Shown piece after piece: positions 18,084 to 54,567 of a DNA stretch of 64,000 nucleotides. Below the pieces are notes generated by a model. That model saw only the letters and a program-made list of their open reading frames with translations. It searched no databases and was not told the origin of the DNA. The translations under genes were made by a program, and so were the position numbers. How positions within the stretch are numbered: position 1 is the first letter of the stretch; each line of letters begins with the position of its first letter. Source of the DNA: an uncultured Bacteroidota bacterium (lineage in GTDB: Bacteria; Bacteroidota; Bacteroidia; Bacteroidales; WCHB1-69); assembly GCA_902774175.1 (NCBI GenBank), contig CACYHG010000003.1, forward strand, positions 7,730 through 71,729, in the 5' to 3' direction.

Positions 18084-18881
18084 CTATAATGCGGCACCCG
18101 ATCCGAGCTGTGTCAGCAACACCACCGATGTGACAACCGACAGAACTGAAGAGAGAGCGGAGACCCAGGAGAGCCAATAGGAGACCTCCTGCTTATAATA
18201 TTGGCTCCGGATTGACTGTGTAACGACATAGTCGTTCTGCTGCAACTGGAAATAGGGATCGTTGAACACCTTGGAGGAGCGCAAGTCCAGCGTCCGGCAG
18301 GTCATCTTACCGTTTACCTGCCGGTAGACCTTCACCTTGTCGCGGCGCGTATAGGTCCCCAAGTCTCCGGATAGCGCCAACGCCTCAAACAGTGTGCAGC
18401 GGTCACCGTCCACATATATCACCTTGCCGCCGTCCGCACCGAGGAAATTGATCTTGAAATTGCTCAACTCCACAGTGACAAAAGGAGTTTTCAGATAGCC
18501 TCCTTCCACCAGCATCCTTGAGATGGTATCCTGAAGCTCAATGCGGGTCATCCCCTCCACATTTATCTTGCCCAAGACCGGAAAATAGATGTTCCCGTTC
18601 AAATCCACCAGATAGCCGTACCATCCTCTTGTGTTTGTATTACCTCCCTGTTGAGTGCGGTTCTGGTTGAACATCTTCACCAGATTCTCGTCATCGTCGG
18701 CGGAGGAGACAAAAATGCCAAGCCTGTCCGAGGGGGCGATCCGCGCCTCATAGTTGGTTTCCAATTCCACCGAAGAGGAATCATTCATGTCCTGCAGATA
18801 CAGGACCCTACGCGGTGTCATACAGGAGGTGCATACCATCACCGTCATAAGCACCAGTACAAATTCCAAACTTTTTTTCAT
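18084..18881 (-). CDS. wza: outer-membrane polysaccharide export lipoprotein (Wza/OPX family)
   Basis: ORF trimmed to MKKSLEFVLVLMTVMVCTSC (lipobox). Poly_export/SLBB-like body and a hydrophobic C-terminal helix (SALSSVLSVVTSVVLL). Confidence 0.88.
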   Translation of the reverse strand: MKKSLEFVLVLMTVMVCTSCMTPRRVLYLQDMNDSSSVELETNYEARIAPSDRLGIFVSSADDDENLVKMFNQNRTQQGGNTNTRGWYGYLVDLNGNIYFPVLGKINVEGMTRIELQDTISRMLVEGGYLKTPFVTVELSNFKINFLGADGGKVIYVDGDRCTLFEALALSGDLGTYTRRDKVKVYRQVNGKMTCRTLDLRSSKVFNDPYFQLQQNDYVVTQSIRSQYYKQEVSYWLSWVSALSSVLSVVTSVVLLTQLGSGAAL

Positions 18882-18948
18882 ATGTAACAGCATTTGAAAT
18901 GATTTATAACGTAACTTGATTTTGCTTATTGTGTTTGTCAGGATTATT

Positions 18949-20082
18949 TCAGATGCAGGCCAGCATCTTTTCGGCAATTATTGTTGAAGCGTTTCCGTCA
19001 CCGAAAACGGGTTTTAGGTTTAATTTTTTATTTTTAAATACATTATACGCACCAATTATCCTGTCGGAATCCGCATCGGCTATGATGCCGGCTCCCTGCT
19101 CCACAATTTCGACCCACTCCGTTTCAGGCCGCATGATGACGCACGGCCGTGCGAAAAAGAAGGCCTCCTTCTGCACTCCGCCCGAATCGGTCAGCACCAT
19201 ACACGCATTCTGCTCCAATGCTGTCATCTCCAGAAATGAAACAGGCGGAACAATCCTGACATTGGAATGCAGCAACATTTCATGGAGTTCTTTCTCCAAA
19301 TTGGTCTCCAACAATTTGGCGGTGCGCGGATGCAGCGGAAGCGCCACAGCGCAATCCTCCGAAATCTGCAGCAATGCCTTGAAAATGGAGGTCAGACGGT
19401 GCGGGTCGTCCGTATTGTTGTCGCGATGGATGGTGGCCAGCACATAGCGGTCCGGCTCCAGTGCATTATCTTTAAGAACAGTGGTTTTTTCAGCCGCAAT
19501 CCGGGCAAAATAGAGACTGTTGTCATACATTATATCCCCGCTGTTGTATACCTGACGCCCCCTGCCATTGGCAAATACCGCCTTGGAATCCATAAATCCT
19601 TCATGGCGAAGATTTTCCATAGCAGTTTCCGTCGGAGCGAACAGCAGGCTTGAAAGATGGTCGCACACTATGCGGTTCTGCTCCTCCGGCATGGTCATGT
19701 TGAAGGAACGCAGCCCCGCCTCAACATGAACGACAGGCACATGCAGCTTGCAGGCAGCCACCGCTCCCGCCAGGGTCGAATTGGTGTCGCCGTACACTAC
19801 CAACGCATCAAAATGTTCAGCCTGCAGCACCTTCTCAATGCCGGCTATCATTTTCGCAGTCTGCTCGCCGTGGCTTCCCGACCCCACATGCAGGTTATAG
19901 TCCGGCTGTGGAATGCCTAACTCGTCGAAGAAGACCTGCGACATGTTGCTGTCGTAGTGCTGGCCGGTATGCAGAATCTTTTCCATAATGCGGCCGGCGA
20001 AGCCGTTGCGGATGACCCGCGACAATGCCGCCGCCTTGATAATCTGCGGACGGGCGCCTATGATGGTAAGTATTTTAAGCAT
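18949..20082 (-). CDS. UDP-N-acetylglucosamine 2-epimerase family protein (paralog 1)
   Basis: GARPQIIKAA, GDTNSTLAGA, HVEAGLRSFN, TDSGGVQKEA. Confidence 0.9.
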   Translation of the reverse strand: MLKILTIIGARPQIIKAAALSRVIRNGFAGRIMEKILHTGQHYDSNMSQVFFDELGIPQPDYNLHVGSGSHGEQTAKMIAGIEKVLQAEHFDALVVYGDTNSTLAGAVAACKLHVPVVHVEAGLRSFNMTMPEEQNRIVCDHLSSLLFAPTETAMENLRHEGFMDSKAVFANGRGRQVYNSGDIMYDNSLYFARIAAEKTTVLKDNALEPDRYVLATIHRDNNTDDPHRLTSIFKALLQISEDCAVALPLHPRTAKLLETNLEKELHEMLLHSNVRIVPPVSFLEMTALEQNACMVLTDSGGVQKEAFFFARPCVIMRPETEWVEIVEQGAGIIADADSDRIIGAYNVFKNKKLNLKPVFGDGNASTIIAEKMLACI

Positions 20083-23197: not shown

Positions 23198-24286
23198 TTA
23201 AATAATTGATAACATATCAACAATCCTTTCTGCAGCATGTCCATCCCACAACGGTGGAACACCACCTTTTTTCCACTGTCCTGCAAACAGTTTGTCCAAA
23301 GCAGGCTTAATATTATCTGGATTTGTCCCTATCAGTTCATTAGTCCCAATTGTGCAAGTTTCAGGACGTTCCGTATTGTCGCGCAGAGTGATACACGGCA
23401 CGCCCATCACTGTTGTCTCCTCGGTGATGCCGCCACTGTCAGTAACCACCACTTTGGCTCTTTCAACCAAATAGTTAAACTCCAAGTAACCCATAGGTTC
23501 AACAATATGGAGGTTGTCGGCATGGATACCTAACTCATCAAAAATCTTTGCAGTGCGCGGATGGATGGGGAAAACAACCGGCAAACCATGTACATTTGTA
23601 ACTATTTCATTCATCAGGCGTTTCAATTTCCCCGCCTCATCAACATTGGCAGGACGGTGCATTGTCAAGACAATGTATTGCTGCGGCTGGAGCGCCAACA
23701 CATCACAGACCGCCGGTTTTACAAATCTTGGACGATTGGCCAGCAAGGTGTCTATCATCACATTGCCGACGAAAAAGAGGTTTTTCTCCTCCACTCCAAA
23801 ACGGCGCAGATTGGCGTTGGCCACCTCGGAGGTGGTAAAGAAATAATCCGCCAGACTATCAGTCACCATGCGGTTAATTTCCTCAGGCATAGTCAAATCC
23901 CAAGAACGTATGCCGGCTTCCACATGTGCAACCTTTGTGCATAGTTTCTTAGCTACAATGGAGCAGGCCATTGTGGAAGTCACATCACCCACCACCAGAA
24001 CAAGGTCAGTGGGATGTTCCATCAAGTCCTTTTCAAATGCCACCATGATGGCTGCCGTCTGCTCCGCCTGCGTGCCGCCGCCACAACCCAAATTGACACC
24101 CGGCTTGGGAATGTTGAGTTCTTCAAAAAAGGTCTCGCTCATCTGCCGGTCATAATGCTGACCAGTATGCACAAGACGATAATGGATGTTCTTCCCTTTT
24201 TTTTCTGCCTTTTGGATTGCATGAATCAAAGGGGCAATCTTCATGAAATTGGGGCGTGCGCCCGCTATAAGAGTTATATGGTGCAT
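23198..24286 (-). CDS. UDP-N-acetylglucosamine 2-epimerase, non-hydrolysing type (paralog 2)
   Basis: GARPNFMKIAP, GDVTSTMAC, HVEAGIRSWD, TDSGGITEET. Confidence 0.92.
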   Translation of the reverse strand: MHHITLIAGARPNFMKIAPLIHAIQKAEKKGKNIHYRLVHTGQHYDRQMSETFFEELNIPKPGVNLGCGGGTQAEQTAAIMVAFEKDLMEHPTDLVLVVGDVTSTMACSIVAKKLCTKVAHVEAGIRSWDLTMPEEINRMVTDSLADYFFTTSEVANANLRRFGVEEKNLFFVGNVMIDTLLANRPRFVKPAVCDVLALQPQQYIVLTMHRPANVDEAGKLKRLMNEIVTNVHGLPVVFPIHPRTAKIFDELGIHADNLHIVEPMGYLEFNYLVERAKVVVTDSGGITEETTVMGVPCITLRDNTERPETCTIGTNELIGTNPDNIKPALDKLFAGQWKKGGVPPLWDGHAAERIVDMLSII

Positions 24287-30842: not shown

Positions 30843-32325
30843 TTAGTCAACCCTTAAAAAGCCCCTTTTTCCCGTTCCACGGCTACAGCCGGTATCCGTT
30901 TCACAGGAGGCATAATCAATAATACGCTATAAAATGGCTGGAAAATCTCCAGACGCAACAGGGCAAAAAGAAGCCTCATGGCTCTTTTGAAGTTGAAAGC
31001 GGCAGCGGACAGCATCACATTGATGTTGTCACCAAACACCCTTGCATAGAAGTTCCGGCAGAGCCAGTGATCCGATTTCAGATGGCCGATGACTGGCTCT
31101 ATACCAGCTCGTTTGCAGAACAGTTCGTGCTTCTTCCGTTTGATGTAGTAACTGTCACCCTTATTCGGCACACCTGGTATCACCACCTCCGTCTGCTCTG
31201 ACCGCTTCTGGCCACGGTATCCGCGGTCCCCGGCAAGCAGCTTCGGCCTGCGGCCGGTCAAACGCTCTGTCTGTTCAAGGCTGGCATCAATCGTGTGTCC
31301 ATAATATTCGTTACGGAATGACAGTGCACCTACTATCAGTCCGTTCCATGTCCGGACAATGGAGACTTTGTTCCCGAACTCGTATTTCTTGTGTTCCTTC
31401 CCTTTGCTAATGCACTGGACTTCCGGTTCATGGAGCGAATAAATTTTGTCCTTGCTGTCCTTCCTCTGGGACAACACTTTGAAATACATGGCAATGCTTT
31501 CGGCATAACCCTCAAGCAAACCTCGCTTTTCAAGGTTGCGTTCCAGTTCGCGCAACAGACGTAGCGCAATTGTCTTCATCTTCCGGTCCGCTTTCAGTGC
31601 CTTCTTCCTGTTCTTCGGATGGTTGCGGAATCGCTGGTCCCGGGCGAGTTCCTTGACCACAAACTTGTAGCTCTGGCGCATCGGCAGCTTTAATTTACCG
31701 TTAATCTTCAACACCCTGCCGATAATCTTCCTGGTCAGTTTTGCATCTGTCGGAAACGTGACGTTCTTCTCCTGCACTGTCGAGTCGATGAACGCTTTGT
31801 CCGTCTCATCATGGTCATCGTTCACGCGAACACTTTCCTTGAGGATGAGTTCTATGCCCGACTCCCCGATGCGCTTGCGGAACGCCACAAGTTCCGTCGG
31901 CGTGCATGGAACTCCGGTCTGGAGCTCCTGCTCTCCACAGAAATACTGGTAGTACACATTCTCCTGCCACTGCTCCACAACACTCTCGTCAGAAACATTG
32001 CGCACGTGCTTCAGTATCAGCAGCCCCACCATCCTGCGGATGGGCTTGCACGGACGGCCATTGTCCTCGCAATAGAGGGGATTGAACGCCTCCTCAAACA
32101 CATTCCAATCTATCTTGTTGGCTAAAAGATATAACGGGTGCTTTTGGTTGAGTTGGGATTCCAAGTTGAAAAACAATGTCTGCTGGTTGCTACGTGTCGG
32201 TTTTGTGTACATGTTTCTGCAAGTTTTATGCTGCAAAGATAACACTTTTTTGCATTCAAAACACAATTTTTCTTAACTTTTTTTACACAATTTCAAATTG
32301 TTAAGGCTTTTTGAGGGGCGACTAA
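30843..32325 (-). mobile_element. IS5-family insertion sequence, intact (1483 bp)
   Basis: Terminal inverted repeats TTAGTCAACCCTTAAAAAGCC and TTAGTCGCCCCTCAAAAAGCC (18 of 21 identical). 4-bp direct target duplication CTAA at 30839..30842 and 32326..32329. Single DDE transposase ORF. Confidence 0.88.
30854..32212 (-). CDS. IS5-family DDE transposase
   Basis: ORF trimmed to MYTKPTRSNQQTLFF. N-terminal DUF772-like region (PCKPIRRMVGLLILKH) and DDE_Tnp_1 region (DSTVQEKN...LAGDRGY...IEPVIGHLK). Confidence 0.9.
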   Translation of the reverse strand: MYTKPTRSNQQTLFFNLESQLNQKHPLYLLANKIDWNVFEEAFNPLYCEDNGRPCKPIRRMVGLLILKHVRNVSDESVVEQWQENVYYQYFCGEQELQTGVPCTPTELVAFRKRIGESGIELILKESVRVNDDHDETDKAFIDSTVQEKNVTFPTDAKLTRKIIGRVLKINGKLKLPMRQSYKFVVKELARDQRFRNHPKNRKKALKADRKMKTIALRLLRELERNLEKRGLLEGYAESIAMYFKVLSQRKDSKDKIYSLHEPEVQCISKGKEHKKYEFGNKVSIVRTWNGLIVGALSFRNEYYGHTIDASLEQTERLTGRRPKLLAGDRGYRGQKRSEQTEVVIPGVPNKGDSYYIKRKKHELFCKRAGIEPVIGHLKSDHWLCRNFYARVFGDNINVMLSAAAFNFKRAMRLLFALLRLEIFQPFYSVLLIMPPVKRIPAVAVEREKGAF

Positions 32326-41585: not shown

Positions 41586-42821
41586 TTATTCCCAAGTAAC
41601 AGGCATGTTAAAGAAGCCCAATTCCTTATTGCTCACATATTGTGTATGTTCACTTCCCGTATCAGTGATGGTCAAAGGCAGAAACGACTTGCAAACATCC
41701 AACATTTTAACATTAGGCACATGCAGTATCGGCACAACAAAATAATTGCCGGGCAAAAGCAATCCCTTAGGAACAATGGCATCAACAGTAAGATGTCCTT
41801 TCTCCAACTGATGGTGCGATGTAAACAAGGGGGACTGGTGATAGTCAAACAATGTAAAACTGATGGTTGCCTTCTCTACAAACATGTTGCAGCCAATCTC
41901 AAACCTGACTTTCACATCTCTATCATAAGCAAAGTCCGAGACATAATTCCCATCAGTATCCAACATTCCAATACGTTTCAAAAACATGTCATTATCAACA
42001 TTCTCGCTAATAAAAACTTCATCAGTCGCGCCTTCAGAGATATATCGTGATATACAATCACGGACGCCTCCCATATACGCAACTTGACCATTCGACAACA
42101 TCACGCCCGACTTACACAGTTGCGCAATCGATCCCATATTATGACTCACAAACAACACAGTCCTTCCCTCTCCTGAGCTAACATCCTGCATTTTTCCGAT
42201 GGCTTTTTTCTGGAACTCGGCATCGCCTACAGCAAGCACCTCGTCCACCACAAGAATCTCAGGATCAAGATGGGCAGCAACTGCAAAGCCAAGACGCACA
42301 GTCATGCCAGAACTATAACGTTTCACAGGTGTGTCAATATAACGCTCACAACCAGAAAAATCAATAATTTCATCTAACTTTCGAGCAATATTATGCTTGG
42401 ACATACCCAAAATAGCTCCATTAAGGTATATATTTTCACGGCCTGTCATTTCAGGATGAAAACCCGTTCCCACCTCAAGCAAGGAACCAATACGGCCCCT
42501 TGCTCCAATCGTTCCAGTTGTAGGCCCTGTTACTCTTGAAAGCAGCTTAAGTAAAGTGCTTTTCCCAGCCCCATTTTTTCCGATAATACCTACGACATCC
42601 CCTTGCTCAACCTTAAAGTCAATGTCTTTCAAAGCCCAGACATATTCGCTATCAGCTGCCTTGGAGCGGTCATTGACCGAACCCACCTTAAGGAAGGGGT
42701 CTTCCTTGCCCAGTATGGACATCTGCCACCAACGCTTTAAGTCGTTGCTAAGAGTGCGAGTAGAAACCAGTCCCAAGCGGTACTGCTTGCTGATGTTGTT
42801 AAATTCTATTGCTGTTGACAT
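41586..42821 (-). CDS. wzt: glycan-export ABC transporter ATP-binding protein with C-terminal substrate-binding extension (Wzt/TagH type)
   Basis: Walker A GKNGAGKST, signature YSSGMTVRL, Walker B ILVVDEVLAVGD, then ~160 extra residues of beta-rich sequence. Confidence 0.9.
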   Translation of the reverse strand: MSTAIEFNNISKQYRLGLVSTRTLSNDLKRWWQMSILGKEDPFLKVGSVNDRSKAADSEYVWALKDIDFKVEQGDVVGIIGKNGAGKSTLLKLLSRVTGPTTGTIGARGRIGSLLEVGTGFHPEMTGRENIYLNGAILGMSKHNIARKLDEIIDFSGCERYIDTPVKRYSSGMTVRLGFAVAAHLDPEILVVDEVLAVGDAEFQKKAIGKMQDVSSGEGRTVLFVSHNMGSIAQLCKSGVMLSNGQVAYMGGVRDCISRYISEGATDEVFISENVDNDMFLKRIGMLDTDGNYVSDFAYDRDVKVRFEIGCNMFVEKATISFTLFDYHQSPLFTSHHQLEKGHLTVDAIVPKGLLLPGNYFVVPILHVPNVKMLDVCKSFLPLTITDTGSEHTQYVSNKELGFFNMPVTWE

Positions 42822-42836
42822 AATATCATTTTTTTC

Positions 42837-43826
42837 TCAATATAATTTCCTAATCACTTTATCAAAAAAACGAATCAACTTTTTATCTTTCTTCAACGCT
42901 GTCTTCCTCAAATAGGAATGCAACCAACTATCTATTGTTCGCTGCGGGTCTTTCAAGTTATATGTTTTAAGGAATACCTCATCCCAAATGTCCAGTTTAC
43001 GCAAATCTTTTATCGTATGGCGAGAGAAACGTTCTACTATATATTCATCCATATAACATTTGGCTACCTCGGTGTCCACCAATTCCAGCAAATCAAATTC
43101 GCAGTCATCCTTTCTATATAAGAATTTGTTAGGTAGAGACAGTACTTGTTCGTTATGCTTTGTCTGCGTATAACTTCTACTCAATTTCACTGGATGCCTA
43201 TGGTTCATCTCCCAGTCCACAAACTGATAGAAGCGGCGCTTTGAAGCCACCCTATGCTGATTCAGGTACGCCAAATGTAAGACTCTGAAGTCATCCACAT
43301 AATACATCTGCTTTTCCTCTATCGGATAAGGGATGCGCATGGAATGCATGTTTCGCACATAGTTGCCATGAGGCTCCTTGCCGTCATCGTGGAACAGCCA
43401 AGGATAATAAGTCGTTGGCGACAGCCAGTATTCTTTTTGATTAGGACAAATCTCCGCCCATTTAAACCAGAACACATCGCCTGGCTTGGAATTCAAGATA
43501 TGCTTCCAATCCTCCGTCTCAAAAGTATTGGCCGCCAACACCTCATCGGCATCCAATCCCCAAAGCAACGTATCGCGTCCCGCTGCAACCTCTCGTGCCT
43601 TGGCCACCAGCATCGCTTGCCGCTCAGCCTCGTTAAATTCGGGGTTCTTGTTGTCTATGAGAATCACTTTCGGATACTTTTTGACAATCTCGCGACTGCC
43701 GTCGGTTGACATCTGGTCGGCAATAATAATGTGGTCAGCCCACAAAGAAGTAGCTTCCAAAAAAGCTTTTAAAACCCATGCCTCATTGCGGACGGGGGTC
43801 ATTACGATATGAATAGAATTGCTCAC
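42837..43826 (-). CDS. GT2-like glycosyltransferase (Glyco_tranf_2_4 type)
   Basis: IVMTPVRNEAWVL, ADQMSTDGS, GLDADE. Confidence 0.72.
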   Translation of the reverse strand: MSNSIHIVMTPVRNEAWVLKAFLEATSLWADHIIIADQMSTDGSREIVKKYPKVILIDNKNPEFNEAERQAMLVAKAREVAAGRDTLLWGLDADEVLAANTFETEDWKHILNSKPGDVFWFKWAEICPNQKEYWLSPTTYYPWLFHDDGKEPHGNYVRNMHSMRIPYPIEEKQMYYVDDFRVLHLAYLNQHRVASKRRFYQFVDWEMNHRHPVKLSRSYTQTKHNEQVLSLPNKFLYRKDDCEFDLLELVDTEVAKCYMDEYIVERFSRHTIKDLRKLDIWDEVFLKTYNLKDPQRTIDSWLHSYLRKTALKKDKKLIRFFDKVIRKLY

Positions 43827-43836
43827 AATTACCCTT

Positions 43837-44817
43837 TTATTTTTTTATTTTGATTATGCGATTAACCTGAAACACTATCTCTGAAAGAGCAAAATTGCGA
43901 CACCAAAAGCCATTGAGCCCACTCCTTTTCCATTGTATTGCCTCTACAATATCAGGATGAGCATCTATAATACTTACGATATCATAAAAAGTCTGTTTAT
44001 TCCTTCGTTTTAATGCTTGTTTCAAAACAATTTTCAATTGTCTCACTGTCATTTCAACTGCCTTCTCATAAAATTGTTTCTCTTTATCAGAAAAGAAGTC
44101 TAAAATGCTCAACTTGTTTTGCAGGTTTTTATAAGTATTTTTCAATACTTTGTTTTTATCCTGAGCCTCATGCATTACCGAATTTGGATTGTTTTTATCA
44201 TAATGGTAAGTTAGGTTATCACAAGAAAGCATTATGTCGGCAAAATATGACAATAAACATATCAGTCGAACATCCTCTGCCATATTGAAACCTTCAATAC
44301 AACGGATAGCATGTTCTTCAAAAAGAGACAAACGGATAATAGCACCAGTTAAAGGCATATAGTCACCATCCAAATTCAACGCTACTCTTTGACTCTTTTC
44401 AACATTAGGATATCTTATCTCCACGACACCATCTGATCTATGTTCACATCTGGATCCAAAAACTAGATCTGCCTTTGTTTCAACTTGTTTTTTCACTAAG
44501 GTCTGGATTGCATCTTTCTCTAACCAATCGTCTGAATCAACAAAACAAACAAACTCCCCTGATGCATTATCTAAGCACGTATTTCGTGCTGCAGCAAGAC
44601 CTTTATTTCTATCATGACTAATTATTTTGACACAATGTTCTCTTTCAGGATAATCCTTCATTACATACTTCAGAATATCAAGGCTTTTGTCTGGTGTAAA
44701 ATCATCAACAAAAACAAACTCCATATCCAAATAAGTCTGCTCAAAAAGGCTGCGACTACACCTCTCAATGTAATCCTCAACACCATATACTGGTACCAAA
44801 ATGCTTATCTTGCACAT
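43837..44817 (-). CDS. glycosyltransferase family 2
   Basis: Trimmed to MCKISILVPVYGVEDYI. VDDFTPD, VDSDDW. Confidence 0.88.
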   Translation of the reverse strand: MCKISILVPVYGVEDYIERCSRSLFEQTYLDMEFVFVDDFTPDKSLDILKYVMKDYPEREHCVKIISHDRNKGLAAARNTCLDNASGEFVCFVDSDDWLEKDAIQTLVKKQVETKADLVFGSRCEHRSDGVVEIRYPNVEKSQRVALNLDGDYMPLTGAIIRLSLFEEHAIRCIEGFNMAEDVRLICLLSYFADIMLSCDNLTYHYDKNNPNSVMHEAQDKNKVLKNTYKNLQNKLSILDFFSDKEKQFYEKAVEMTVRQLKIVLKQALKRRNKQTFYDIVSIIDAHPDIVEAIQWKRSGLNGFWCRNFALSEIVFQVNRIIKIKK

Positions 44818-44862
44818 ATCAAAAATTAAACACTCTTGCACCTACCCCATCTTTAATACACA

Positions 44863-45594
44863 TTAAAGACGAAATATTATCTTACGAAATAAATTTTTTG
44901 TTTTATAAATACGCCCACCCCACGTTTCTCCAAACATATTTTTTAGTTTGACAAAAAGTTTGTCTTCATTATGCCATGAGCCAGCAAAATGATGTATCGT
45001 ATATGTATTGTCCGTTAATCGAATCTTTCCATCAACGTAAGACTTAGGACAAAAATATTCCTTGGGGAAGATGGCCAATTCTGAATTCACAATCTGGAAT
45101 TGATTATTGGGCACAAGACCTAATTGAATTGCATGTTCAGTAATGATTTGGACATTAGGTTTGGTATTATAAGCCCCATTGGGCAAGATAAAAGACTGAG
45201 TTTCATAGTATTCCAGCTCTCTCTTAGCCCACGAGCTGCCTTTTTCCGCACCCATAATTCCAGTAGGGATTGCTTCATCCACTTCAAAGCCTGAAAACGC
45301 AGGATATACCAAAAACTCATCCAAGGAGCGAAGGACTTCAACATCTGTATCCATATAAACACCGCCTTCGGAATACAAGGCATATAGCCTAACATAATCT
45401 GTCACAAAGGCAAATTTTCTACTATGGTATGCTTCTTTTACGAATTTATTGGAATTAATATCAAAGTTATCCTCGTTCCATAATCTATACTCATATTCCG
45501 GCAAATACTTATGCCACGATTCAATGCAGCGTTTGGCATCCTCTGGCATTTGGCCACGCCCGAACCAACAATAGTGAATAATTTTAGGTATCAT
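44863..45594 (-). CDS. GT32-like glycosyltransferase, paralog 2
   Basis: [28 protein letters not shown]. Roughly half of the residues are identical to 28803..29522 by eye. Confidence 0.85.
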
Positions 45595-46745
45595 AGTCTA
45601 TCACTAAGAAACTGAATAATTCTACTAGATGCAGCGCCATCCCCATAAGGGTTGACTGCCTCACTCATACGACGATACAATAATGGTTGCTCCATCAAAG
45701 CGATTACATTCTGCTGAATTTTTTCCCTATCAGTTCCTACAAGTAAGACTGTTCCTGCTGCAATCGCCTCAGGACGTTCTGTGGTATCCCTCATAACGAG
45801 AACTGGTTTTCCTAAACCTGGAGCTTCTTCCTGAATTCCGCCAGAATCCGTTAAAATAAGATAACTATGCTCCATCAAATATACGAAAGGTAGATACTGA
45901 AGTGGTTCTATAAGGAAAACGTTTTTAAGCATTCTGTCGCCCAAGATATCGAAAACAGGCTTACGAACATTTGGATTCAAGTGTACAGGATATACGAAAT
46001 CGGCATCAGGATAACGGTCTGCCAGCAACTTAATAGCGTGACAAATATTTTGAAAACCATCTCCAAAATTCTCTCTCCTATGACCTGTGACAAGAACCAA
46101 CCGACGTTTTTCCATAAGTCGAGTTGTATCATAACCCTTAGCCAAAATATCTTGCCTCACCACTGATCGAACCGCCTCATCATCATTCAGTCGTTTGATT
46201 ACAATATGCAAGGCATCTATCACGGTATTTCCCGTAACGATAATTCGATCTAGTTCAACTTTTTCTTTGAGAAGGTTTTCTTTTGCCAATTGTGTTGGCG
46301 CAAAGTGAAATGTTGCTATTCTACCAGTCAATTGTCGGTTCATCTCTTCTGGCCACGGACTATAAATATTATAAGTCCTCAATCCAGCCTCAACATGTCC
46401 AACAGGAATTTGTTGATAAAAAGAGGCCAGAGCAGCGGCCGCTGAAGTTGTAGTATCACCGTGAACCAGTACAATATCAGGATTGGTCTCTTTGAGGACA
46501 TCTCGCATACCAACTAATACGCGAGAAGTAACATCATATAAATCTTGCCCCTGTTGCATGATATTCAAATCGTAATCAGGTTGAATATCAAAGACACGCA
46601 ATACTTGGTCAAGCATTTCACGATGTTGTCCTGTTACGCACACTTGAGTACAAAACCGTTCTGGCCTAAGCTGAAGTGATTTCACCAGCGGTGCCATTTT
46701 TATTGCCTCTGGACGAGTGCCAAACACCAACAATACTTTTTTCAT
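45591..46745 (-). CDS. wecB: UDP-N-acetylglucosamine 2-epimerase, non-hydrolysing (paralog 3)
   Basis: [42 protein letters not shown]. Confidence 0.93.
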
Positions 46746-46767: not shown

Positions 46768-47967
46768 TTATTTCAAAAAATAGGATTCAATTCGTTTACA
46801 GCTACCATCGTCACCAACACTGCCATAGATAAAATCCTTAACCTTAGCTCTTTCCATAGCAAAAGAATCAATACCATTTTTTATCTCTGATATAAAATCA
46901 AAGAGCTGTTGTTTGTCAAAAATATGGTTTCCTGGCATGACATCAAGTATATTATCCCAAACAAAACCACGATCATCTTGATATGAATCCATATCATCAA
47001 GGATATAAGCAATAGGCTTGTCCAATAAAAGATAATCAAAACTAACAGAGGAATAGTCTGTAATAAGGGCATCTGATTTCCCTATCATTTCATATAATTG
47101 AATCCCCCTTCCCCTCAAATCATCATCTGTCACAAAAACAATATTGGAGTAAGTCTTGCAAAATATTGGTTTGTCCGATTGCAAATGATGTATCTTAACA
47201 ATAATCTCCACACTATTCTCCGACAAAAATTTATTCAATTCCTTCACATCGTCTTCCATAGCTATTAAAGGAAGTCCCGTTTCCGTGTCACAGCTTTGTT
47301 CCGACAAGGAATCTTGCACCGACTTCCTAAAAGTAGGCATCCACAAAAGGACTTTTTTGTTGCAACCCGTTGCGAATGGATTACAACCACCCTCTCCTTT
47401 GTTTCCTAGTAACAAATCATTTCTAGGATAACCTATAGGGATAACTCTGTTTTCATCACATTGAAGAAACTTACTTTGTGGTAATATCGCATTCTTTCCA
47501 ATTGACAAAGTAAAATCAAATCCAACCGTACCGCTACCCTTTCCCGCCTTAATAGCACAACCATGACTGGTATATACTAAAACTTGTTCCCCATGTTTTA
47601 CAAACTCTGGCAGTGTACAATGTGTGTAAATTATATACTTGGCACGAGAATAAAACCAATATGCTTTCAATCTAAGTCCACTACCATATCGAGAAATGAA
47701 AATAGTATCATTGCTCTTTCCGTAGGATTTTGGATTAACCACTACCCAAACAAACCTATAACTATGTGTTTCTTTTAGATACTGGTATAAGGCCCAAGCA
47801 TTGTCACAGAAATCAGGTTGACTCTCAAAAATAATCAGTTTATCATCTATTGATAATAAACGAAACAAGGAATAAAACAACGGCCTAATTGGAGTACAAA
47901 GGACATTTTGCACAATCCTAAATGAACCGGCAATTCCATGCTTCTGTATCTTTTCGACTAGATTCAT
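46768..47967 (-). CDS. CDP-glycerol glycerophosphotransferase (TagB/TagF family)
   Basis: LWMPTFRKS and [22 protein letters not shown], the two hallmark TagF-family blocks. Confidence 0.85.
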
Positions 47968-47990
47968 CAGCTAAAACAACTTAAATCGAT

Positions 47991-48686
47991 CTACTTAAAA
48001 CAATACCCTCCGTTCACCTCAATCAAACTCCCATTAACAAACGGATTGTCAATACAGAATCGGAATGCATCAACAATTTCATCAACTGTCGCAAATCGGT
48101 GAATGGCTGTTTTCTTATATATGTTTTGCTTTATTTCCTCGGGCTTCGCTGCTTGCCATGGAGTATCCACAAAACCCGGAACAATGGCGTTCACCGTGGT
48201 ACCTGTACCCTCAAATTCCTTGACAAGATTTCTGCAGAGCGCATGGACAGCCGCCTTAGTCACTCCGTATGCTAGTACTGTGGCATGAGGGTCAATGCCC
48301 ATTTGCGAACCTGTGAAAAGAATACGGGAACCCTTTGGAATCATCTGGAAAAACTCCCGTATCATGATGTAATGTGAATTGACCGCCACCTCCATCATGG
48401 CATCCCATTCATCGTCTTTCATCTCAGTGAACGAACGGCGGACGGTCATGCCGGCATTGCACACAATGCAATCCAAAGGATTGGTTTGCGCCTTTACGTA
48501 TCCAACGAAACGATAGACTTCATCGCGATTGGTCTGGTCAATCTTATGTGCCTCAAAGTTGTCCATCCTATCCTCAAAGTCGGGACCAATATAGGTTGCA
48601 TAGACATAGTAGCCCTTGCCAAGCAACATCTTCGCAACACCCAGACCCAATCCAGAAGTTCCGCCGGTAACAATAGCGTATTTCAT
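47991..48686 (-). CDS. short-chain dehydrogenase/reductase
   Basis: TGGTSGLG, NAG, Y..TK catalytic motif (YGVTKAAV). Confidence 0.9.
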   Translation of the reverse strand: MKYAIVTGGTSGLGLGVAKMLLGKGYYVYATYIGPDFEDRMDNFEAHKIDQTNRDEVYRFVGYVKAQTNPLDCIVCNAGMTVRRSFTEMKDDEWDAMMEVAVNSHYIMIREFFQMIPKGSRILFTGSQMGIDPHATVLAYGVTKAAVHALCRNLVKEFEGTGTTVNAIVPGFVDTPWQAAKPEEIKQNIYKKTAIHRFATVDEIVDAFRFCIDNPFVNGSLIEVNGGYCFK

Positions 48687-48698
48687 CTCTTTGAACTC

Positions 48699-49154
48699 TT
48701 ATTTAACCACATCCGGATTAGGTTGATGGTCGATTTGACGCAGCGTGTCGTGATAACGCTCCAGAATAGTCTTTTTGATACCCGTCGTGGAAGCTCCTTC
48801 GCCTCTCGGGAAGTAGAACACGGTAACACCAAGTCCCTTCAAGTAATCATATTTTCCCACCCAGTCGTCGCCAACAACAAACACATCAATATTCAATTTC
48901 TTCACAACTTCAGTATGTTCCAAAGAACGCTGAGGAATAACAATGTCGGGGTATTTCAGTGCTTTGATAATGGCTATCCTTTCCTCAAAAGGAATAATCG
49001 GTGGATTCTTGTAACTAGCAACAAGTTCATCGGTGCTAACCCCCACAATGAGCGTATCTCCCAAACCACGGGCATATTCTATCATCTTCAGATGATTGGA
49101 GTGGAACATGTCGAAGGTTCCGGAAGTATAGACAACAATCTTATTATTATACAT
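48699..49154 (-). CDS. glycerol-3-phosphate cytidylyltransferase-like (TagD family)
   Basis: YTSGTFDMFHSNHLKMIEYA (HxGH-like), DVFVVGDDWVGKYDYLK, RGEGASTTGIKK. Block-by-block similar to B. subtilis TagD. Confidence 0.88.
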   Translation of the reverse strand: MYNNKIVVYTSGTFDMFHSNHLKMIEYARGLGDTLIVGVSTDELVASYKNPPIIPFEERIAIIKALKYPDIVIPQRSLEHTEVVKKLNIDVFVVGDDWVGKYDYLKGLGVTVFYFPRGEGASTTGIKKTILERYHDTLRQIDHQPNPDVVK

Positions 49155-49633
49155 AAAAGTCTGGAAAAAGAATACAACAAATCTTCACAGGAACTTTTCT
49201 TTTCAATAATGTCAAGTGCATTTTCAAAGGTCAAGTATTCTGAAAAGCAATCGCCTCTGGGTTCAAATAATAGGTAATTGTTCCTGTATATCTCTGACAT
49301 TTTGTCTTTTAAGTATTCCACCGCTTCATTAAAACTCTCCGCATGGAAATCTGAAAAATCCAAAAACAAAACATGGTATGAATTGATTTCCTTTGAAAAA
49401 ATGTCCTTTCCCCCTATCTTTAGATTTTGAAAAACTGACCTGCTGTCAATGTTCTTGTCAAGAAAACAAGCTAAAGTCTTTAAAAGAAAAGAGGAACCGG
49501 TCCCATGACAATTCGTCAAAGTACAGTATCGTAACGAAAAAAGTTTTTCAAAAAACTCGGTCTTGTCACTATATCTTTTTGACTTTACGTCATTCAGCAC
49601 AGACATGTTTTTTTTTATTTCCATTTTCTTCAT
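49088..49633 (-). pseudogene. truncated AAA-ATPase_like (PF09820-type) gene, N-terminal ~150 codons only
   Basis: YSDKTEFFEKLF...CHGTGSSFLLKTLACFLDKN resembles the start of the Bacteroides AAA-ATPase/PDDEXK_9 family (normally ~500 aa). The frame runs into and overlaps the TagD-like start. Confidence 0.5.
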
Positions 49634-49724: not shown

Positions 49725-50855
49725 TCAGAATTCCCTTTGTATCCAGTATCCCAAAAAAAGGTCATAAACAGAATAAACACCCCTTTCATTGGTTACAAAG
49801 TCCTTTTCCAGAAGTCCCTTCACCGCCGATTGCACCGTACTGGATGAGGGCAATCCATATTTATGCAGAAAAGCCGATGAGGTTATGGCTTTGGAAGGTC
49901 CGTTCTTCGCCAAAGCAATTAGAACCATCTTCTGTTTCTCGGGTAAACGGAACAATGTTTCCTCAAAGCTATAGGATTGCGTCCTGACCACATAATCCAA
50001 AGCATCTTCCACATCCGACACCTTACACTCTTCCCCTTCGGGTGTATGGGCATATAGCGTATTGAACAGTTTTTGCGTGTACCAGGTGATGCCCTGTGAA
50101 CGGGAATAAACCGCTTGGGTCACACCATCAGCCAATTTTCGCCCACCTTCTGCAAAAAGTGCTTTGGCGAAAGCGTCGTACTGCTGAATATCAATGCTGT
50201 CAAGATGCATCATCGAAACACTTTGGAAAAAAGGGCGGGCGGCACTGGTGAACATGGCGCCCATAGTGTGGCGTTGACTCCCTGCAAAAATGAACTTGGC
50301 GTTATGGCACTGCTGCACATAGGTTCGCAAAGTGGCCTCAATGTTCTTTTCGGGATAATTGCCGATTTGTTGGAACTCATCAATAGCCACAATACAGGGG
50401 CGACTGGCTTTTTCCAGATACTGGAATATTTCATCCAATGTTATGATACCGGACTGTATCTCCCCGACTTGCACGTTGAACGAAGGTTCACCCGCCGGCG
50501 AGAAAGAGATGCCGGCCTGCAATGAACGCATGCAATCCCAAAAGTGTTTCAACGCACGCGCACCATGCGGCTGCAGGCGAACAAGGATTTCCCTGCTGAG
50601 TTTCAGAACCAACTCGCGAAGAGACTGGGTGTCGTATATGTCAACGAAAAAGGTATAGTATTCACGCTGTATTTCTGGGAGGCTGAAATAGTGCTGTATC
50701 AGGCCGCTTTTGCCCATACGGCGTGTGGCTATCAGCGCGACATTGTTACCGTTGGCAATCTCCTCCCCCAACCGCAACGTTTCCTGCCTACGGTCACAAA
50801 AATAGCGTTCACCTTCGTATCCACTAATTATGAACGGATTGGATAATCTATTCAT
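49725..50855 (-). CDS. AAA+ ATPase (archaeal-ATPase/PF01637-like) with C-terminal wHTH
   Basis: Walker A ATRRMGKSGL, Walker B VAIDEFQ, C-terminal LIALAKNGPSKAITSSAF. 376 aa. Confidence 0.8.
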   Translation of the reverse strand: MNRLSNPFIISGYEGERYFCDRRQETLRLGEEIANGNNVALIATRRMGKSGLIQHYFSLPEIQREYYTFFVDIYDTQSLRELVLKLSREILVRLQPHGARALKHFWDCMRSLQAGISFSPAGEPSFNVQVGEIQSGIITLDEIFQYLEKASRPCIVAIDEFQQIGNYPEKNIEATLRTYVQQCHNAKFIFAGSQRHTMGAMFTSAARPFFQSVSMMHLDSIDIQQYDAFAKALFAEGGRKLADGVTQAVYSRSQGITWYTQKLFNTLYAHTPEGEECKVSDVEDALDYVVRTQSYSFEETLFRLPEKQKMVLIALAKNGPSKAITSSAFLHKYGLPSSSTVQSAVKGLLEKDFVTNERGVYSVYDLFLGYWIQREF

Positions 50856-51215: not shown

Positions 51216-52100
51216 TTACACCGTATCCATAAAGCTCTTCTGGACCTTGTTGAAAATCAAGATACCGAGAGCAAGCACGACCAGCATGAAGACAAAGCTA
51301 TAAGCCAGCCAGCCCCAGCCAATGAACTCTCCGGCACCCAAAGCGGCATGCTTGAATGTCTCGATCACGGGCGTCACAGGGTTGATGCACATGACGTTAT
51401 ATAAGTCGAAACCGGCTACGACCTTCCCTTTCACCTGGCTTAACGGGTAGACAATAGGTGTGGCATACATCCACAACTGGACAAAAAATGTGAAAAATAT
51501 TTGCAGGTCACGGTACTTTGTGGTCATTGAGGAAATGATGATACCGAACCCTAACGCCAGCCCGGCCATCATCAGCACCAGCAGCGGAAACAGCAAAATA
51601 TACCAGTTCGGACAGGCAACCGTACCGCCAATGACATAGAACAGATAGACAATGACAAACAGGCCGAACTGGATGCCGAACCGCACCAAATTGCTCACCG
51701 TGTTTGATATCGGCATAATCAGACGGGGAAAATAGACCTTACCGAAGATGTTGGCATTGGAGACAAAAGTGTTGGAAGTCTTGTTCAGACAATCGGCAAA
51801 ATACTGCCACATGCAGACACCTGCCAGATAGAAGAGCGGTTGTGGGATGCCATCGGTCGGGATGCCGGCGATGCCGCCGAACACCACCATGTACATAATC
51901 ACGGTAAGGGCGGGTTGGATAAGCCACCAGAGCGGCCCCAAAATGGTTTGCTTGTACTGCGTGATGATGTCCCTTTTTACAAACAGTGTCAGCAAATCAC
52001 GATACGCCCAGACCTCTTTCAGATTAACTTCGAAAAGTTTGTTACGAGGTTTGATGACAGTGGTCCATTGCTCTTCGCGAGAAACAGTTTCAGCTTGCAT
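51216..52100 (-). CDS. wzm: ABC-2-type glycan-export permease (Wzm/TagG)
   Basis: Trimmed to MQAETVSREEQW. Six TM helices and the conserved RDIITQYKQTILGPLWW entry motif. Confidence 0.88.
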   Translation of the reverse strand: MQAETVSREEQWTTVIKPRNKLFEVNLKEVWAYRDLLTLFVKRDIITQYKQTILGPLWWLIQPALTVIMYMVVFGGIAGIPTDGIPQPLFYLAGVCMWQYFADCLNKTSNTFVSNANIFGKVYFPRLIMPISNTVSNLVRFGIQFGLFVIVYLFYVIGGTVACPNWYILLFPLLVLMMAGLALGFGIIISSMTTKYRDLQIFFTFFVQLWMYATPIVYPLSQVKGKVVAGFDLYNVMCINPVTPVIETFKHAALGAGEFIGWGWLAYSFVFMLVVLALGILIFNKVQKSFMDTV

Positions 52101-52261
52101 TTTTACGAATAATGTTAGGTTATGATACGGCTTCGCCCGTGTCAGAAACATGCAAATAATTGTAATACAAATATTTACATTATCTGGCACAGGCCAAAAA
52201 ACATCCTGCAAAGGTAACAAAAAAAAAGATATGACAATTAAATTAAAAAAGGAAAATGCAA

Positions 52262-53524
52262 TTAAAAATAGAAAACAGCCTCCAGAATAATGCGAAGGTT
52301 TCCGACAGCGTCGGTCGGCAGGTATCTGAACACTTTCCCATCGGTGAGTTTTTCACCATATTTTGCAGAAGTATACTCTAACTCAGTAAAAAAGGCAACC
52401 GATGCGTTGGGGCAGAAAGCAAGCTGAGGCTGCACCCGCCAAACGTTGTCGATATCAAATCCGCGTCCGTAGACTGCTGCCTCCGCATCGAACCAGATGC
52501 CGAAAGAATTGTTTTGCGTATAGCCGAGAAAAATTCCGGGGCGCCATCTGCCGCAAATCCGGCGGAAATCGGCCCAGAGGGAGGTGCATCCGAAAGGTGT
52601 GTACGCGTAACCGGCATCCTGAGGGAGGCGCGTTTCGAGATAGCCGCCCAACAGACCCTGCTCAAACAGGTTGTCACCATAGATTCCCTGGTAGCGGAGG
52701 CTCCAACACTTATAGTCATGGCGCCCGAACAGCGACACGGTGAACGAGGGGAACGTGGTGGAGGTCCGATGGAGCAGGCCGGCGGCATCATCAAAATAAT
52801 TCCGCGGACGCAGCACCTCGGCATTGAACATGCAGCCCAAAAAGCTGGAGACACGCTCTCCCCAGACGTACCGCAGCTGCAGGTTCCCCTCCGGCAGTGC
52901 AGCGGCACGCAGATACGCGGTGCTTTTTCCGTAAGGGCCCGCAGAGGCATTGTCCAGCTGGAATGCGGCGACAGCCTCCATCTGCACAAAAGGGCGTGAC
53001 GCGGAACTCCTGCAGAGGTATCGTCCCTGCACGTAACGCGAATAGGGATGGAACGGGATGCCCATATTCAGCGGACGGGTGCCCAGCATTATATCCGGCA
53101 CCACTAACGGATGCCAATATTGTCCGAAGAGCCATTCCGAACGTTCCCGCTGCAGGCTGATGTAAGCGTGACGGAGCCGCAGCATATTGATGCCGGCCTC
53201 GTTGGAGCCGGTGAAGTCGCCCTCCAGATATGAGGAGACCTTTGTGGCGCCCCAGTCGGGAGCCTTAATCCGCAGGCCAAGCCGTGTGGTTATGGCCAGC
53301 ATGTTCAGGTTCGGCACAGCATTGAGGTCGTTCCCATTCACATCCGGCAGCCTCGGAGCAGGATAGAAGGACAACTGCCCCTCACGGGCGCCCACCACCT
53401 GACGGCTGTCCATGAAGAGCTGCGGGTCGACAAAACCGGAAAAACGGTAATCGAAACCCGTTCTTTGGGCATAAATGGCCATACAACAGAAAAGCAGCAG
53501 CGCCACAGTGGAAATACGCTTCAT
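52262..53524 (-). CDS. outer-membrane beta-barrel, porin-like
   Basis: Trimmed to MKRISTVALLLFCCMAIYAQ (signal peptide). Alternating beta-strand pattern, aromatic girdle residues, C-terminal ...EAVFYF. Confidence 0.7.
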   Translation of the reverse strand: MKRISTVALLLFCCMAIYAQRTGFDYRFSGFVDPQLFMDSRQVVGAREGQLSFYPAPRLPDVNGNDLNAVPNLNMLAITTRLGLRIKAPDWGATKVSSYLEGDFTGSNEAGINMLRLRHAYISLQRERSEWLFGQYWHPLVVPDIMLGTRPLNMGIPFHPYSRYVQGRYLCRSSASRPFVQMEAVAAFQLDNASAGPYGKSTAYLRAAALPEGNLQLRYVWGERVSSFLGCMFNAEVLRPRNYFDDAAGLLHRTSTTFPSFTVSLFGRHDYKCWSLRYQGIYGDNLFEQGLLGGYLETRLPQDAGYAYTPFGCTSLWADFRRICGRWRPGIFLGYTQNNSFGIWFDAEAAVYGRGFDIDNVWRVQPQLAFCPNASVAFFTELEYTSAKYGEKLTDGKVFRYLPTDAVGNLRIILEAVFYF

Positions 53525-53526
53525 GG

Positions 53527-54567
53527 CTACTGGGAATGATGGCGTTTGATGATAATGCTGCACATTATTTTCCAGAAATAGCCCCACTGGGTCCTGAACG
53601 GATGCTTGAAGTAGGCGTCCAAATAACGTTTTTCGCTCTGCTGCACCTCCTCCAAGCCCTCCGGCATGTCCACATAATATGGGGGGAGCAGGCCGGGTTT
53701 GGCCTTGATGCGGTAGGCCTGCATCTCAGGAGTGTAGAGAAAATAGTACTGCTCGCTCAGCGGACGGACGCCAACCAGTTTCATGTCACACTTAAGTATG
53801 TTCCAAACCATCGGGAGTTCGTCAAGCCAATACTTGCGAAGGAGCCTCCCCCATCCGGACACACGAAAGTCGTTGGCGAACTTGCCGGTCTTGTCCAGCA
53901 TGTTGTGTTCGTACACATATTTCTGCAAATATTCGGAATAGGCATACATGGTCCGGAACTTGTATACAGGGAAACGTCTGCCGTCCTTACCGACCCTGCG
54001 CAGGGAGATGAGCAGGCCGTATGAGGGATGCTCGTCTGTGGAGGGGATCCGTTTTTTCTGACATACCACCAGATTCACACCATCCAGCACCTCCGAATGC
54101 AGGATGTCGAACCCGCAGAAGCACAGACGTCCGAAAACCTCAGGCATAGGATATACCCTTTTCACCTGCTTATAGATGGAGAAATAGAGGCGGCGGGTGA
54201 GCGTCATTTTTGGACATGCCCTGTGCCACAGGAAATCAAAGAAAAGATAAAGGCGGCTCATTTTGGGATGTTTTTCCCGAATCTGGCGCCTGCGGGTCTC
54301 CGAGGAGTAAAAACCGCAGATGAAAATCCCATCCGTCCGCATCTTCTGGTTGACAAAGATCAGATGGCGGTTCAGATAGCGCTGCTGGTTCAGAAAAACG
54401 GAGTCCACCACAAACTGGCAGGTGCCGTCCTCAGCCCCCTCAACCCATTCGGTTGCCTCAAGACTGAGCATCTTCCGCTGCTTCAAAGTGGTGGCATTTT
54501 TCAGCCCCGCAACAAACTCCTGCCACGAACGCGCAGGATGACCATTATCCAAATTATTAATTTCCAA
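53527..54567 (-). CDS. bacterial sugar transferase (initiating phosphoglycosyltransferase) with atypical N-terminal half
   Basis: C-terminal PF02397 core: FPVYKFRTMY...DELPMVWNILKCDMKLVGVRPL. Confidence 0.85.
   Translation of the reverse strand: MEINNLDNGHPARSWQEFVAGLKNATTLKQRKMLSLEATEWVEGAEDGTCQFVVDSVFLNQQRYLNRHLIFVNQKMRTDGIFICGFYSSETRRRQIREKHPKMSRLYLFFDFLWHRACPKMTLTRRLYFSIYKQVKRVYPMPEVFGRLCFCGFDILHSEVLDGVNLVVCQKKRIPSTDEHPSYGLLISLRRVGKDGRRFPVYKFRTMYAYSEYLQKYVYEHNMLDKTGKFANDFRVSGWGRLLRKYWLDELPMVWNILKCDMKLVGVRPLSEQYYFLYTPEMQAYRIKAKPGLLPPYYVDMPEGLEEVQQSEKRYLDAYFKHPFRTQWGYFWKIMCSIIIKRHHSQ

Follow-up and report, generated by a model that had tools for sequence, protein, structure and literature searches.

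To our knowledge, next to nothing is known of O-antigen-like glycan chemistry in the uncultured Bacteroidales dominant in gut and rumen. For Gram-negative bacteria TagF-like capsule polymerases have reportedly been published from A. pleuropneumoniae (Cps), N. meningitidis serogroup H and E. coli K2. From the published chemistry of Fom1 together with PhpC/FomC it can be taken that a cytidylyltransferase/phosphoenolpyruvate (PEP) mutase fusion, a thiamine pyrophosphate (TPP)-dependent decarboxylase and an iron-dependent alcohol dehydrogenase (Fe-ADH) make cytidine monophosphate (CMP)-2-hydroxyethylphosphonate. Moreover, two-enzyme routes consisting of a cytidylyltransferase and a reductase lead to cytidine diphosphate (CDP)-alditols, for example HS5.18/HS5.17 of C. 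jejuni (CDP-6-D-glucitol), Mnp1/Mnp2 of S. pneumoniae and Bcs1 of H. influenzae (PMC10918830). Here we analysed three adjacent genes in a stretch of 64,000 nucleotides, called the window in the following, from an uncultured Bacteroidota bacterium of the order Bacteroidales (assembly GCA_902774175.1, contig CACYHG010000003.1, positions 7,730 to 71,729). The genes encode a cytidylyltransferase, a short-chain dehydrogenase/reductase (SDR) and a TagF-like transferase:

48699-49154, minus strand: cytidylyltransferase of the TagD/ECT fold, 'HSNH' subfamily, 151 amino acids (aa) (PF01467, E=3.1e-19)
47991-48686, minus strand: classical SDR, 'type A', 231 aa (PF00106, E=2.6e-36)
46768-47967, minus strand: single-domain TagF-family CDP-alcohol-phosphate transferase, 399 aa (PF04464, E=1.8e-48)

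A preliminary description of the window had interpreted these genes as a wall-teichoic-acid toolkit making glycerol phosphate. The protein families named there stand, as does the broader expectation of a small alcohol linked to a surface glycan by a phosphodiester, whereas the assignment to TagD and the linkage-unit logic are not supported. What is new is a donor cassette composed of the HSNH-type cytidylyltransferase and the SDR, its wide spread, and its exchange with a phosphonate cassette.

The integrity of the genes can be read directly from the DNA. All three open reading frames (ORFs) lie precisely at the positions given in the preliminary description, are full length and are ordered cytidylyltransferase, SDR, TagF-like gene, with intergenic gaps of 12 and 23 nt. 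In the SDR, which does lie between the other two genes as described earlier, the cofactor and catalytic motifs TGGTSGLG, NAG and YxxxK are intact.

The cytidylyltransferase aligned over its full length with B. subtilis TagD (PDB 1coz, E=2.2e-28, 102 bits) including the GDDW and ...STT blocks, and searches of PDB and NCBIfam identified TagD as its nearest characterised relative; the N-terminal half matched human ethanolamine-phosphate cytidylyltransferase nearly as well. The TagD-like alignment claimed before is therefore real, but the nucleotide-binding motif, in which both histidines are present, reads HSNH and not HxGH, and the score of 112.1 bits against the TagD equivalog TIGR01518 is under the cut-off of 165.4. 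For a comparison of subfamilies, 97 orthologues were aligned with 11 ordinary TagD-like proteins and mapped onto TagD via the 1coz alignment. The asparagine of the HSNH motif was found in 97/97 orthologues, and a glycine occupies this site in 11/11 ordinary TagD-like proteins. Tyr48, Lys49 and Asn50 of the window enzyme fall on TagD positions 44-46. The Lys44/Lys46 pair, which going by the TagD literature we take to be important for catalysis, is absent, and Tyr-Lys in place of Lys44-x-Lys46 is a fixed difference between the two groups, as is a leucine in place of Trp74. TagD has RTEGISTT where the window enzyme has RGEGASTT, and this replacement of Thr114 by glycine occurs in all 97 orthologues.

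The distribution of the matches points in the same direction. In a search sample of 401 Bacteroidales genomes the matches were bimodal: 19 genomes, the window's own included, contained orthologues at 66-84% identity or above, and a second set at <=49% identity consisted of ordinary TagD-like proteins. Judged by its residues and relatives, the window cytidylyltransferase is a member of a distinct 'HSNH' subfamily and not an ordinary TagD. CpgD (CDP-glycerate) was considered as a relative and rejected, since, according to the authors who described it, its fold resembles that of choline-phosphate cytidylyltransferase and is not structurally homologous to glycerol-3-phosphate cytidylyltransferases.

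The second feature that sets this subfamily apart is its pairing with an SDR. Of the 18 further loci with orthologues in the order, 16 have as next gene one for an SDR related to that of the window, whereas ordinary TagD-like genes have no such neighbour. We then turned to a collection of species-representative genomes, in which 317 loci encode relatives of the cytidylyltransferase, and counted the context in the best 80 (77-98% identity). An SDR adjoins the cytidylyltransferase in 69 of these; 46 carry the type found in the window (type A) and 23 a second type without meaningful similarity to it. The window's type alone comprises >120 protein clusters at >=80% identity. Searched against five other genomes, the window SDR always matched best an SDR adjacent to a cytidylyltransferase, with E values of 1e-44 to 1e-52 as against about 1e-20 for FabG-type proteins, and by this measure the cytidylyltransferase-adjacent SDRs are one orthologous group. 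On the strength of the conserved pairing and the orthology we reject the view that the SDR is a mere neighbour.

Searches of NCBIfam and PDB gave only generic matches for both SDR types (FabG-level for the window SDR) and nothing or generic matches for the neighbouring proteins of 335 and 349 aa. The second type, for example L002:5343-6074 and also in L064, L065 and L070 (L-numbers are labels of the relatives' loci compared with the window), is encoded behind a near-identical cytidylyltransferase and within the 80 loci is paired only with LicD. It may represent a non-orthologous replacement or a route to another product. We looked for residues of the cytidylyltransferase that track the presence of type A, of the second type or of no SDR, and none are present. 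On one contig cytidylyltransferase and SDR are fused into a single ORF of 387 aa (P0137) that is followed by a TagF-like gene and Wzt; this is weak evidence because the coverage of the contig is low. Another candidate donor module, at L148:736-4448, comprises LicD, a 602-aa NTP_transferase-aminotransferase fusion and an Octopine_DH-family protein and has as neighbours a cytidylyltransferase-SDR fusion and a TagF-like gene.

The pair occurs together with different output enzymes. A LicD-family phosphotransferase is encoded within 6 kb in 50 of the 80 closest loci and a TagF-like protein in 11. Nearly all of these 80 loci are from metagenome-assembled genomes (MAGs) or isolates of gut or rumen Bacteroidales (Prevotella, Alloprevotella, Paraprevotella, Paludibacteraceae, Ca. 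Colimorpha). Cultured strains with the cytidylyltransferase-SDR-LicD arrangement include Prevotella sp. P3-122 (L094) and Alloprevotella sp. Lung230 (L139). In more distant orthologue loci, belonging to other Bacteroidales families, the pair heads a lipid-type operon with a CDP-alcohol phosphatidyltransferase, an LPG_synthase_TM protein and two PlsC-like acyltransferases. As the pair is seen with LicD, with TagF-like proteins and with CDP-alcohol phosphatidyltransferases, it is therefore best described as a portable donor cassette serving three kinds of output enzyme. The lipid-type operons are located at L056:4634-10585 and L048:7833-13075, with similar ones in L046, L054, L057, L058 and L060 and with KAS III or DUF1573 upstream; they may provide phospholipids or sphingolipids with an unusual head group. 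Literature searches for published accounts of TagD/TagF/LicD-SDR modules in Bacteroides or Prevotella found none.

The third gene of the module encodes a TagF-family protein that scores 165.8 bits against PF04464 (threshold 22.1) and covers profile positions 2-349 of 367. The signature blocks reported for it earlier, PTFR and a second one of 11 protein letters, are present. His135 (SHG) and His260 (KIHH) align with H444 and H584 of S. epidermidis TagF (3l7i), both catalytic histidines being conserved; the H444N mutant chain 3l7j has asparagine in the column of His135, consistent with this alignment position. TarF is the best NCBIfam match, at 80 bits far under the equivalog cut-off of 550, and the score against TarL is 35 with a cut-off of 1000. 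Among PDB entries Cps3D (8qoy) is matched with E=3e-10. The reaction presumed for the window enzyme forms a phosphodiester by transfer of the alcohol phosphate of the CDP donor to a hydroxyl group on a sugar of the undecaprenyl-linked glycan. For an outer-membrane organism of this order, possession of a TagF-family gene is not unusual: PF04464 genes are found in 71 of the 401 genomes of the order and also in B. thetaiotaomicron. Phospho-alcohol modules are fairly common in Bacteroidales.

The closest relatives of the TagF-like protein with readable context, P0005 (75% identity) and P0007 (77%), are encoded in loci that are syntenic with the window, with the order Bac_transf-Wzm-X-TagF-WecB-GT32-GT2-GT2-Wzt. 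In these loci X is not the cytidylyltransferase-SDR pair but a cytidylyltransferase/PEP mutase fusion with a TPP decarboxylase and an Fe-ADH, which by analogy with the Fom1 set is predicted to make CMP-2-hydroxyethylphosphonate. Since the closest TagF-like relatives stand beside a phosphonate cassette, the donor is not fixed by the transferase. The phosphonate cassettes are found in rumen and gut Bacteroidales at L001:3758-9203, L142:2054-7552 and L143:1518-7016, the fusion reading (NTP_transf_3-)cytidylyltransferase-PEP mutase; for these three loci we predict an O-antigen-type glycan that bears 2-hydroxyethylphosphonate transferred by the TagF-family enzyme. At L049:8952-12347 (G344) an HSNH cytidylyltransferase gene is immediately followed by genes for a cytidylyltransferase-PEP mutase fusion and a phosphonopyruvate decarboxylase, and two LicD genes are close by, an arrangement indicating that phosphate and phosphonate donor modules can coexist in one locus.

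A mosaic is apparent from the protein identities. The cytidylyltransferase and the SDR are closest to those of L005, a locus with the order LicD-cytidylyltransferase-SDR-TagF (98% and 90% identity, respectively). The TagF-like protein (75%), WecB (81%, encoded at the same position), the GT32 protein (80%), GT2_4 (84%) and Wzm (84%) are closest to those of the phosphonate locus L001. DNA homology to L005 begins exactly at the start codon of the cytidylyltransferase (49154), and homology to L001 resumes at wzm. The ratio of nonsynonymous to synonymous substitution rates (dN/dS) was calculated against relatives: the cytidylyltransferase has a value of about 0.009, the SDR one of 0.04 and the TagF-like gene one of 0.08, with dS saturated (1.3-2.0) and dN tiny. 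Consequently, the mosaic is old and its genes have been kept by selection; all three are under strong purifying selection. In the window's genome a genuine PEP mutase is absent, the only matches scoring 32 and 23 bits. This rules out a phosphonate substrate in this organism, and the donor must be a phosphate ester.

The surroundings of the module were annotated as follows:

53527-54567, minus strand: Bac_transf initiating phosphoglycosyltransferase at the head of the locus (PF02397)
52262-53587, minus strand: beta-barrel protein
51216-52220, minus strand: Wzm, ABC-2 permease (PF01061)
49725-50855, minus strand: AAA-ATPase gene (Pfam)
49088-49633, minus strand: truncated AAA-ATPase_like remnant (Pfam), overlapping the start of the cytidylyltransferase gene
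45591-46745, minus strand: WecB, non-hydrolysing UDP-GlcNAc 2-epimerase, conserved beside this clade of TagF-like genes (TIGR00236, 516.8 bits, cut-off 210)
44863-45594, minus strand: GT32-type glycosyltransferase (Gly_transf_sug/Caps_synth; Pfam)
43837-44841 and 42837-43826, minus strand: two GT2 glycosyltransferases (Pfam)
41586-42821, minus strand: Wzt, ATP-binding cassette (ABC) ATPase (PF00005) with a variable C-terminal domain of ~150 aa (about residues 265-411)

The module is placed between wzm and wzt, both of which are present as had been reported, and the AAA-ATPase gene with its truncated remnant occupies the junction of wzm and the donor cassette. On the whole we favour, with some reserve, an explanation in which the three genes form one operon segment within a Wzm/Wzt (ABC-transporter-dependent) glycan locus. 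The GC content of this minus-strand locus is 0.37-0.47, with the minimum of 0.37 at 44-48 kb, compared with 0.52-0.55 in the flanks. Beyond Wzt in the order of transcription follow further glycosyltransferases and an FdtABC set. An insertion sequence (IS)-type transposase (DUF772 and DDE_Tnp_1, 470 aa) at 30854-32266 separates the FdtABC/DegT end of the ABC-type locus from a second glycosyltransferase block, whose last genes encode Wza (18084-18977) and a Wzc-like kinase (15537-18047); the transposase region may thus be the junction of two glycan loci. Elsewhere in the genome, contig C1 carries a LicD gene (94456-95082) ~10 kb from another PF01467 cytidylyltransferase gene (105114-105500), and contig C10 an additional TagD-like ORF (C10:18639-18923), so that the organism may possess further phospho-alcohol modules.

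The wecB gene follows the TagF-like gene directly, as stated in the preliminary description. Its proposed role in a wall teichoic acid linkage unit is not supported: a search for TagA/WecG (PF03808) that detected it in the controls E. coli and B. subtilis gave no match in the 97.9%-complete genome, and the initiating enzyme belongs to PF02397. Three PF02350 UDP-GlcNAc 2-epimerase paralogues with ~30% mutual identity are encoded within 28 kb (45591-46745, 23198-24286 and 18949-20082), and only the first attains the wecB equivalog score. In the clade of close TagF-like relatives, WecB stands between the TagF-like gene and GT32 in two loci. All loci of this clade with readable downstream context have GT32 following the TagF-like gene, except the P0004 contigs L144-146, in which GT2 is found instead. 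A GT32 protein after the TagF-like protein is also encoded in L002, L005 and L147 in addition to L001 (81% and 38% identity for L002 and L005), and the GT2_4 proteins of L001 and L005 share 84-86% identity with that of the window.

The conserved TagF-like/GT32 pair bears on the position of the phospho-alcohol in the glycan. Because of this pair, and because both donors, glycerol phosphate and hydroxyethylphosphonate, keep a free hydroxyl, a position within the chain, as in teichoic acid, is favoured over a dead-end decoration. Export by Wzm/Wzt would parallel TagGH. Alternatively, the phospho-alcohol could be a chain-end cap that is read by the variable C-terminal domain of Wzt. This domain weakly matches PF14524 (24.5 bits, cut-off 30.4), the carbohydrate-binding domain of Wzt in cap-dependent export of the E. 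coli O9a / K. pneumoniae O12 type, and the best NCBIfam matches of Wzt are teichoic-acid and galactan exporters, all under their equivalog cut-offs. Across 11 loci the nucleotide-binding domains of Wzt are 75-92% identical, the C-terminal domains mostly 10-19%, which is the pattern expected of serotype-specific glycan-recognition modules. The comparison drew on the window, L001, L002, L005, L063-L071 and L147, with one cluster of C-terminal domains at 50-74%. No clear correlation between the type of C-terminal domain and the donor cassette was seen across the related loci.

Taking family membership and catalytic residues together, the module probably activates a small alcohol phosphate, most plausibly glycerol phosphate, and attaches it to the exported glycan. 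The cytidylyltransferase would join cytidine triphosphate (CTP) to the small alcohol phosphate, yielding the CDP-activated donor. The SDR would supply the alcohol phosphate by reducing a keto-phosphate such as dihydroxyacetone phosphate (DHAP), or it would reduce a CDP-linked keto intermediate. We infer the substrate, which of these two donor steps comes first and where in the glycan the phospho-alcohol sits, whereas the intact genes, their families and catalytic residues, the conserved pairing of cytidylyltransferase and SDR and the cassette mosaic are observed directly. Glycerol phosphate is favoured because TagD is the nearest characterised enzyme, because the cassette also serves lipid head-group synthesis, a use that fits glycerol, because the alternative donor is a small hydroxy-alkyl acid and because the substrate has to be a phosphate ester. 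We lean towards glycerol phosphate of some stereochemistry; another polyol is possible and clearly less probable, and anything else seems improbable. If glycerol phosphate is made, it would not be made via the textbook TagD route: GpsA is present, the active-site motifs differ, and locus L082 carries both kinds of cytidylyltransferase gene.

Several observations have to be set against this interpretation. First, as the genome encodes GpsA, the SDR is not needed for the supply of sn-glycerol-3-phosphate or for plain CDP-glycerol. Second, three related MAGs of unknown completeness contain the cytidylyltransferase and LicD and nowhere a cognate SDR of either type, suggesting that the SDR is not strictly required. 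Third, two unrelated SDR types accompany the same cytidylyltransferase. Fourth, in L082 the cytidylyltransferase-SDR pair has an ordinary TagD-like gene as its immediate neighbour, which argues that the two make different donors. Finally, the nearest relatives of the TagF-like protein appear to use a phosphonate donor.

We offer a more far-reaching interpretation tentatively. The HSNH pair would make a donor other than CDP-sn-glycerol-3-phosphate, a general currency of gut and rumen Bacteroidales on which phosphotransferases of the LicD, TagF-like and CDP-alcohol classes would draw, whether for glycans or for the head groups of lipids. In the locus family of the window, an O-polysaccharide resembling teichoic acid would be assembled by the TagF-like/GT32 pair, and its link would be exchangeable for hydroxyethylphosphonate with its C-P bond, or else the phospho-alcohol would be the chain-end cap read by Wzt. 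Candidates for such a donor are the enantiomeric CDP-sn-glycerol-1-phosphate derived from DHAP or another small hydroxy-alcohol phosphate.

We considered three alternatives to the explanation favoured above. The first is the textbook pathway: a true TagD would make CDP-sn-glycerol-3-phosphate from the cellular pool, the TagF-like enzyme would add or polymerise glycerol phosphate, and the SDR would be an accessory or a passenger. TagD and TarF are indeed the best matches of the two enzymes (TagD in both PDB and NCBIfam, TarF in NCBIfam), GpsA supplies glycerol-3-phosphate, and some related loci lack any SDR. This pathway is nevertheless unlikely, as the cytidylyltransferase scores under the TagD equivalog cut-off, all 97 orthologues share its altered active-site motifs, only the HSNH subfamily is paired with the SDR and L082 contains both kinds of cytidylyltransferase. 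Moreover, no gene for TagA/WecG was found in the genome, and a plain poly(glycerol phosphate) fits poorly with the many glycosyltransferases of the locus.

The second alternative is a different CDP-alditol (ribitol, arabinitol, erythritol, glucitol or mannitol). On the model of Bcs1/TarIJ, AbpA/B, Mnp1/2 and C. jejuni HS5.18/HS5.17, a keto-sugar phosphate would be cytidylylated and then reduced by the SDR, or the reverse, and the TagF-like enzyme would transfer the alditol phosphate. What characterises CDP-alditol pathways is a cytidylyltransferase with a reductase encoded next to it (PMC10918830). In addition, the TagF and LicD families are generally known to include CDP-ribitol users, and two non-homologous SDR types with one cytidylyltransferase could yield epimeric products, as Mnp2 and HS5.17 do. 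We consider this alternative doubtful, since the characterised cytidylyltransferases of these pathways are all IspD-type and their reductases extended SDRs or medium-chain dehydrogenases/reductases. As direct homologues the enzymes of the CDP-6-glucitol/mannitol-type pathway were ruled out, belonging to PF01128 and PF01370. The cassette also feeds a CDP-alcohol phosphatidyltransferase in lipid operons, and we know of no precedent for a pentitol or hexitol lipid head group. Furthermore, the two-carbon hydroxyethylphosphonate that serves as alternative donor in syntenic loci suggests a small alcohol.

The third alternative, a decaying or silent recombination relic beside ATPase debris that contributes nothing to the glycan, could be suggested by the truncated AAA-ATPase gene overlapping the cytidylyltransferase start, by the lowest GC content of the window in this block and by the IS element further down the locus, but is very remote given three full-length ORFs with intact catalytic motifs, dN/dS values of 0.01-0.08 and the recurrence of the same gene order in many genomes.

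Phospho-alcohol groups give surface glycans charge and epitopes and thereby affect interactions with phages, the immune system and the host. A very widespread and very conserved cassette of two genes, with relatives in 317 loci, plugs into three classes of phosphotransferases. It is interchangeable with a hydroxyethylphosphonate cassette in otherwise syntenic loci, which predicts phosphonate and phosphate versions of the same glycan, and it offers a concrete, clonable target for enzymology. The current understanding is not overturned by these results, because teichoic-acid-like polymers in Gram-negative bacteria are already established.

How does the module compare with the known systems? Like Fom1-type clusters with the PhpC/FomC Fe-ADH it uses a PF01467 enzyme that would activate a small hydroxy-alkyl phosphorus acid, and the Fom1-type cassette fills the same slot, from wzm to the TagF-like gene, in L001, L142 and L143; unlike these clusters, the window's genome lacks a genuine PEP mutase. 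With the CDP-alditol pathways it shares the logic of a cytidylyltransferase and an adjacent NAD(P)H reductase that would deliver a CDP-polyol donor for a capsule or O-antigen. The enzymes themselves differ, PF01128 (IspD-type) and PF01370 (extended SDRs) being opposed to PF01467 and PF00106 (classical SDR) in the window.

The wall teichoic acid route of B. subtilis and S. aureus, with TagD (TarD) and TagB/TagF/TarF, has in common with the window the cytidylyltransferase fold (~100 bits to TagD), a PF04464 transferase with both catalytic histidines and an ABC-2 exporter of the TagGH/Wzm-Wzt type (PF01061). In contrast to TagD, the window enzyme has HSNH, lacks Lys44/Lys46, has glycine for the threonine of RTEGISTT and comes with an obligate-looking SDR partner. 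The locus differs from wall teichoic acid loci in belonging to an outer-membrane organism, in its many extra glycosyltransferases and in its PF02397 Bac_transf initiator, with no TagO-type initiator in the locus. Because of this initiator and the missing TagA/WecG, the analogy to wall teichoic acid is only partial. The TagF-like capsule polymerases of Gram-negative bacteria likewise show phospho-polyol chemistry and a TagF-type domain alongside a glycosyltransferase. They are large multidomain proteins of group 2 (KpsMT) loci and are supplied by an ordinary TagD-type enzyme, whereas the TagF-like protein of the window is a free-standing protein of 399 aa with a separate GT32, embedded in a Wzm/Wzt locus together with a variant cytidylyltransferase and its SDR.

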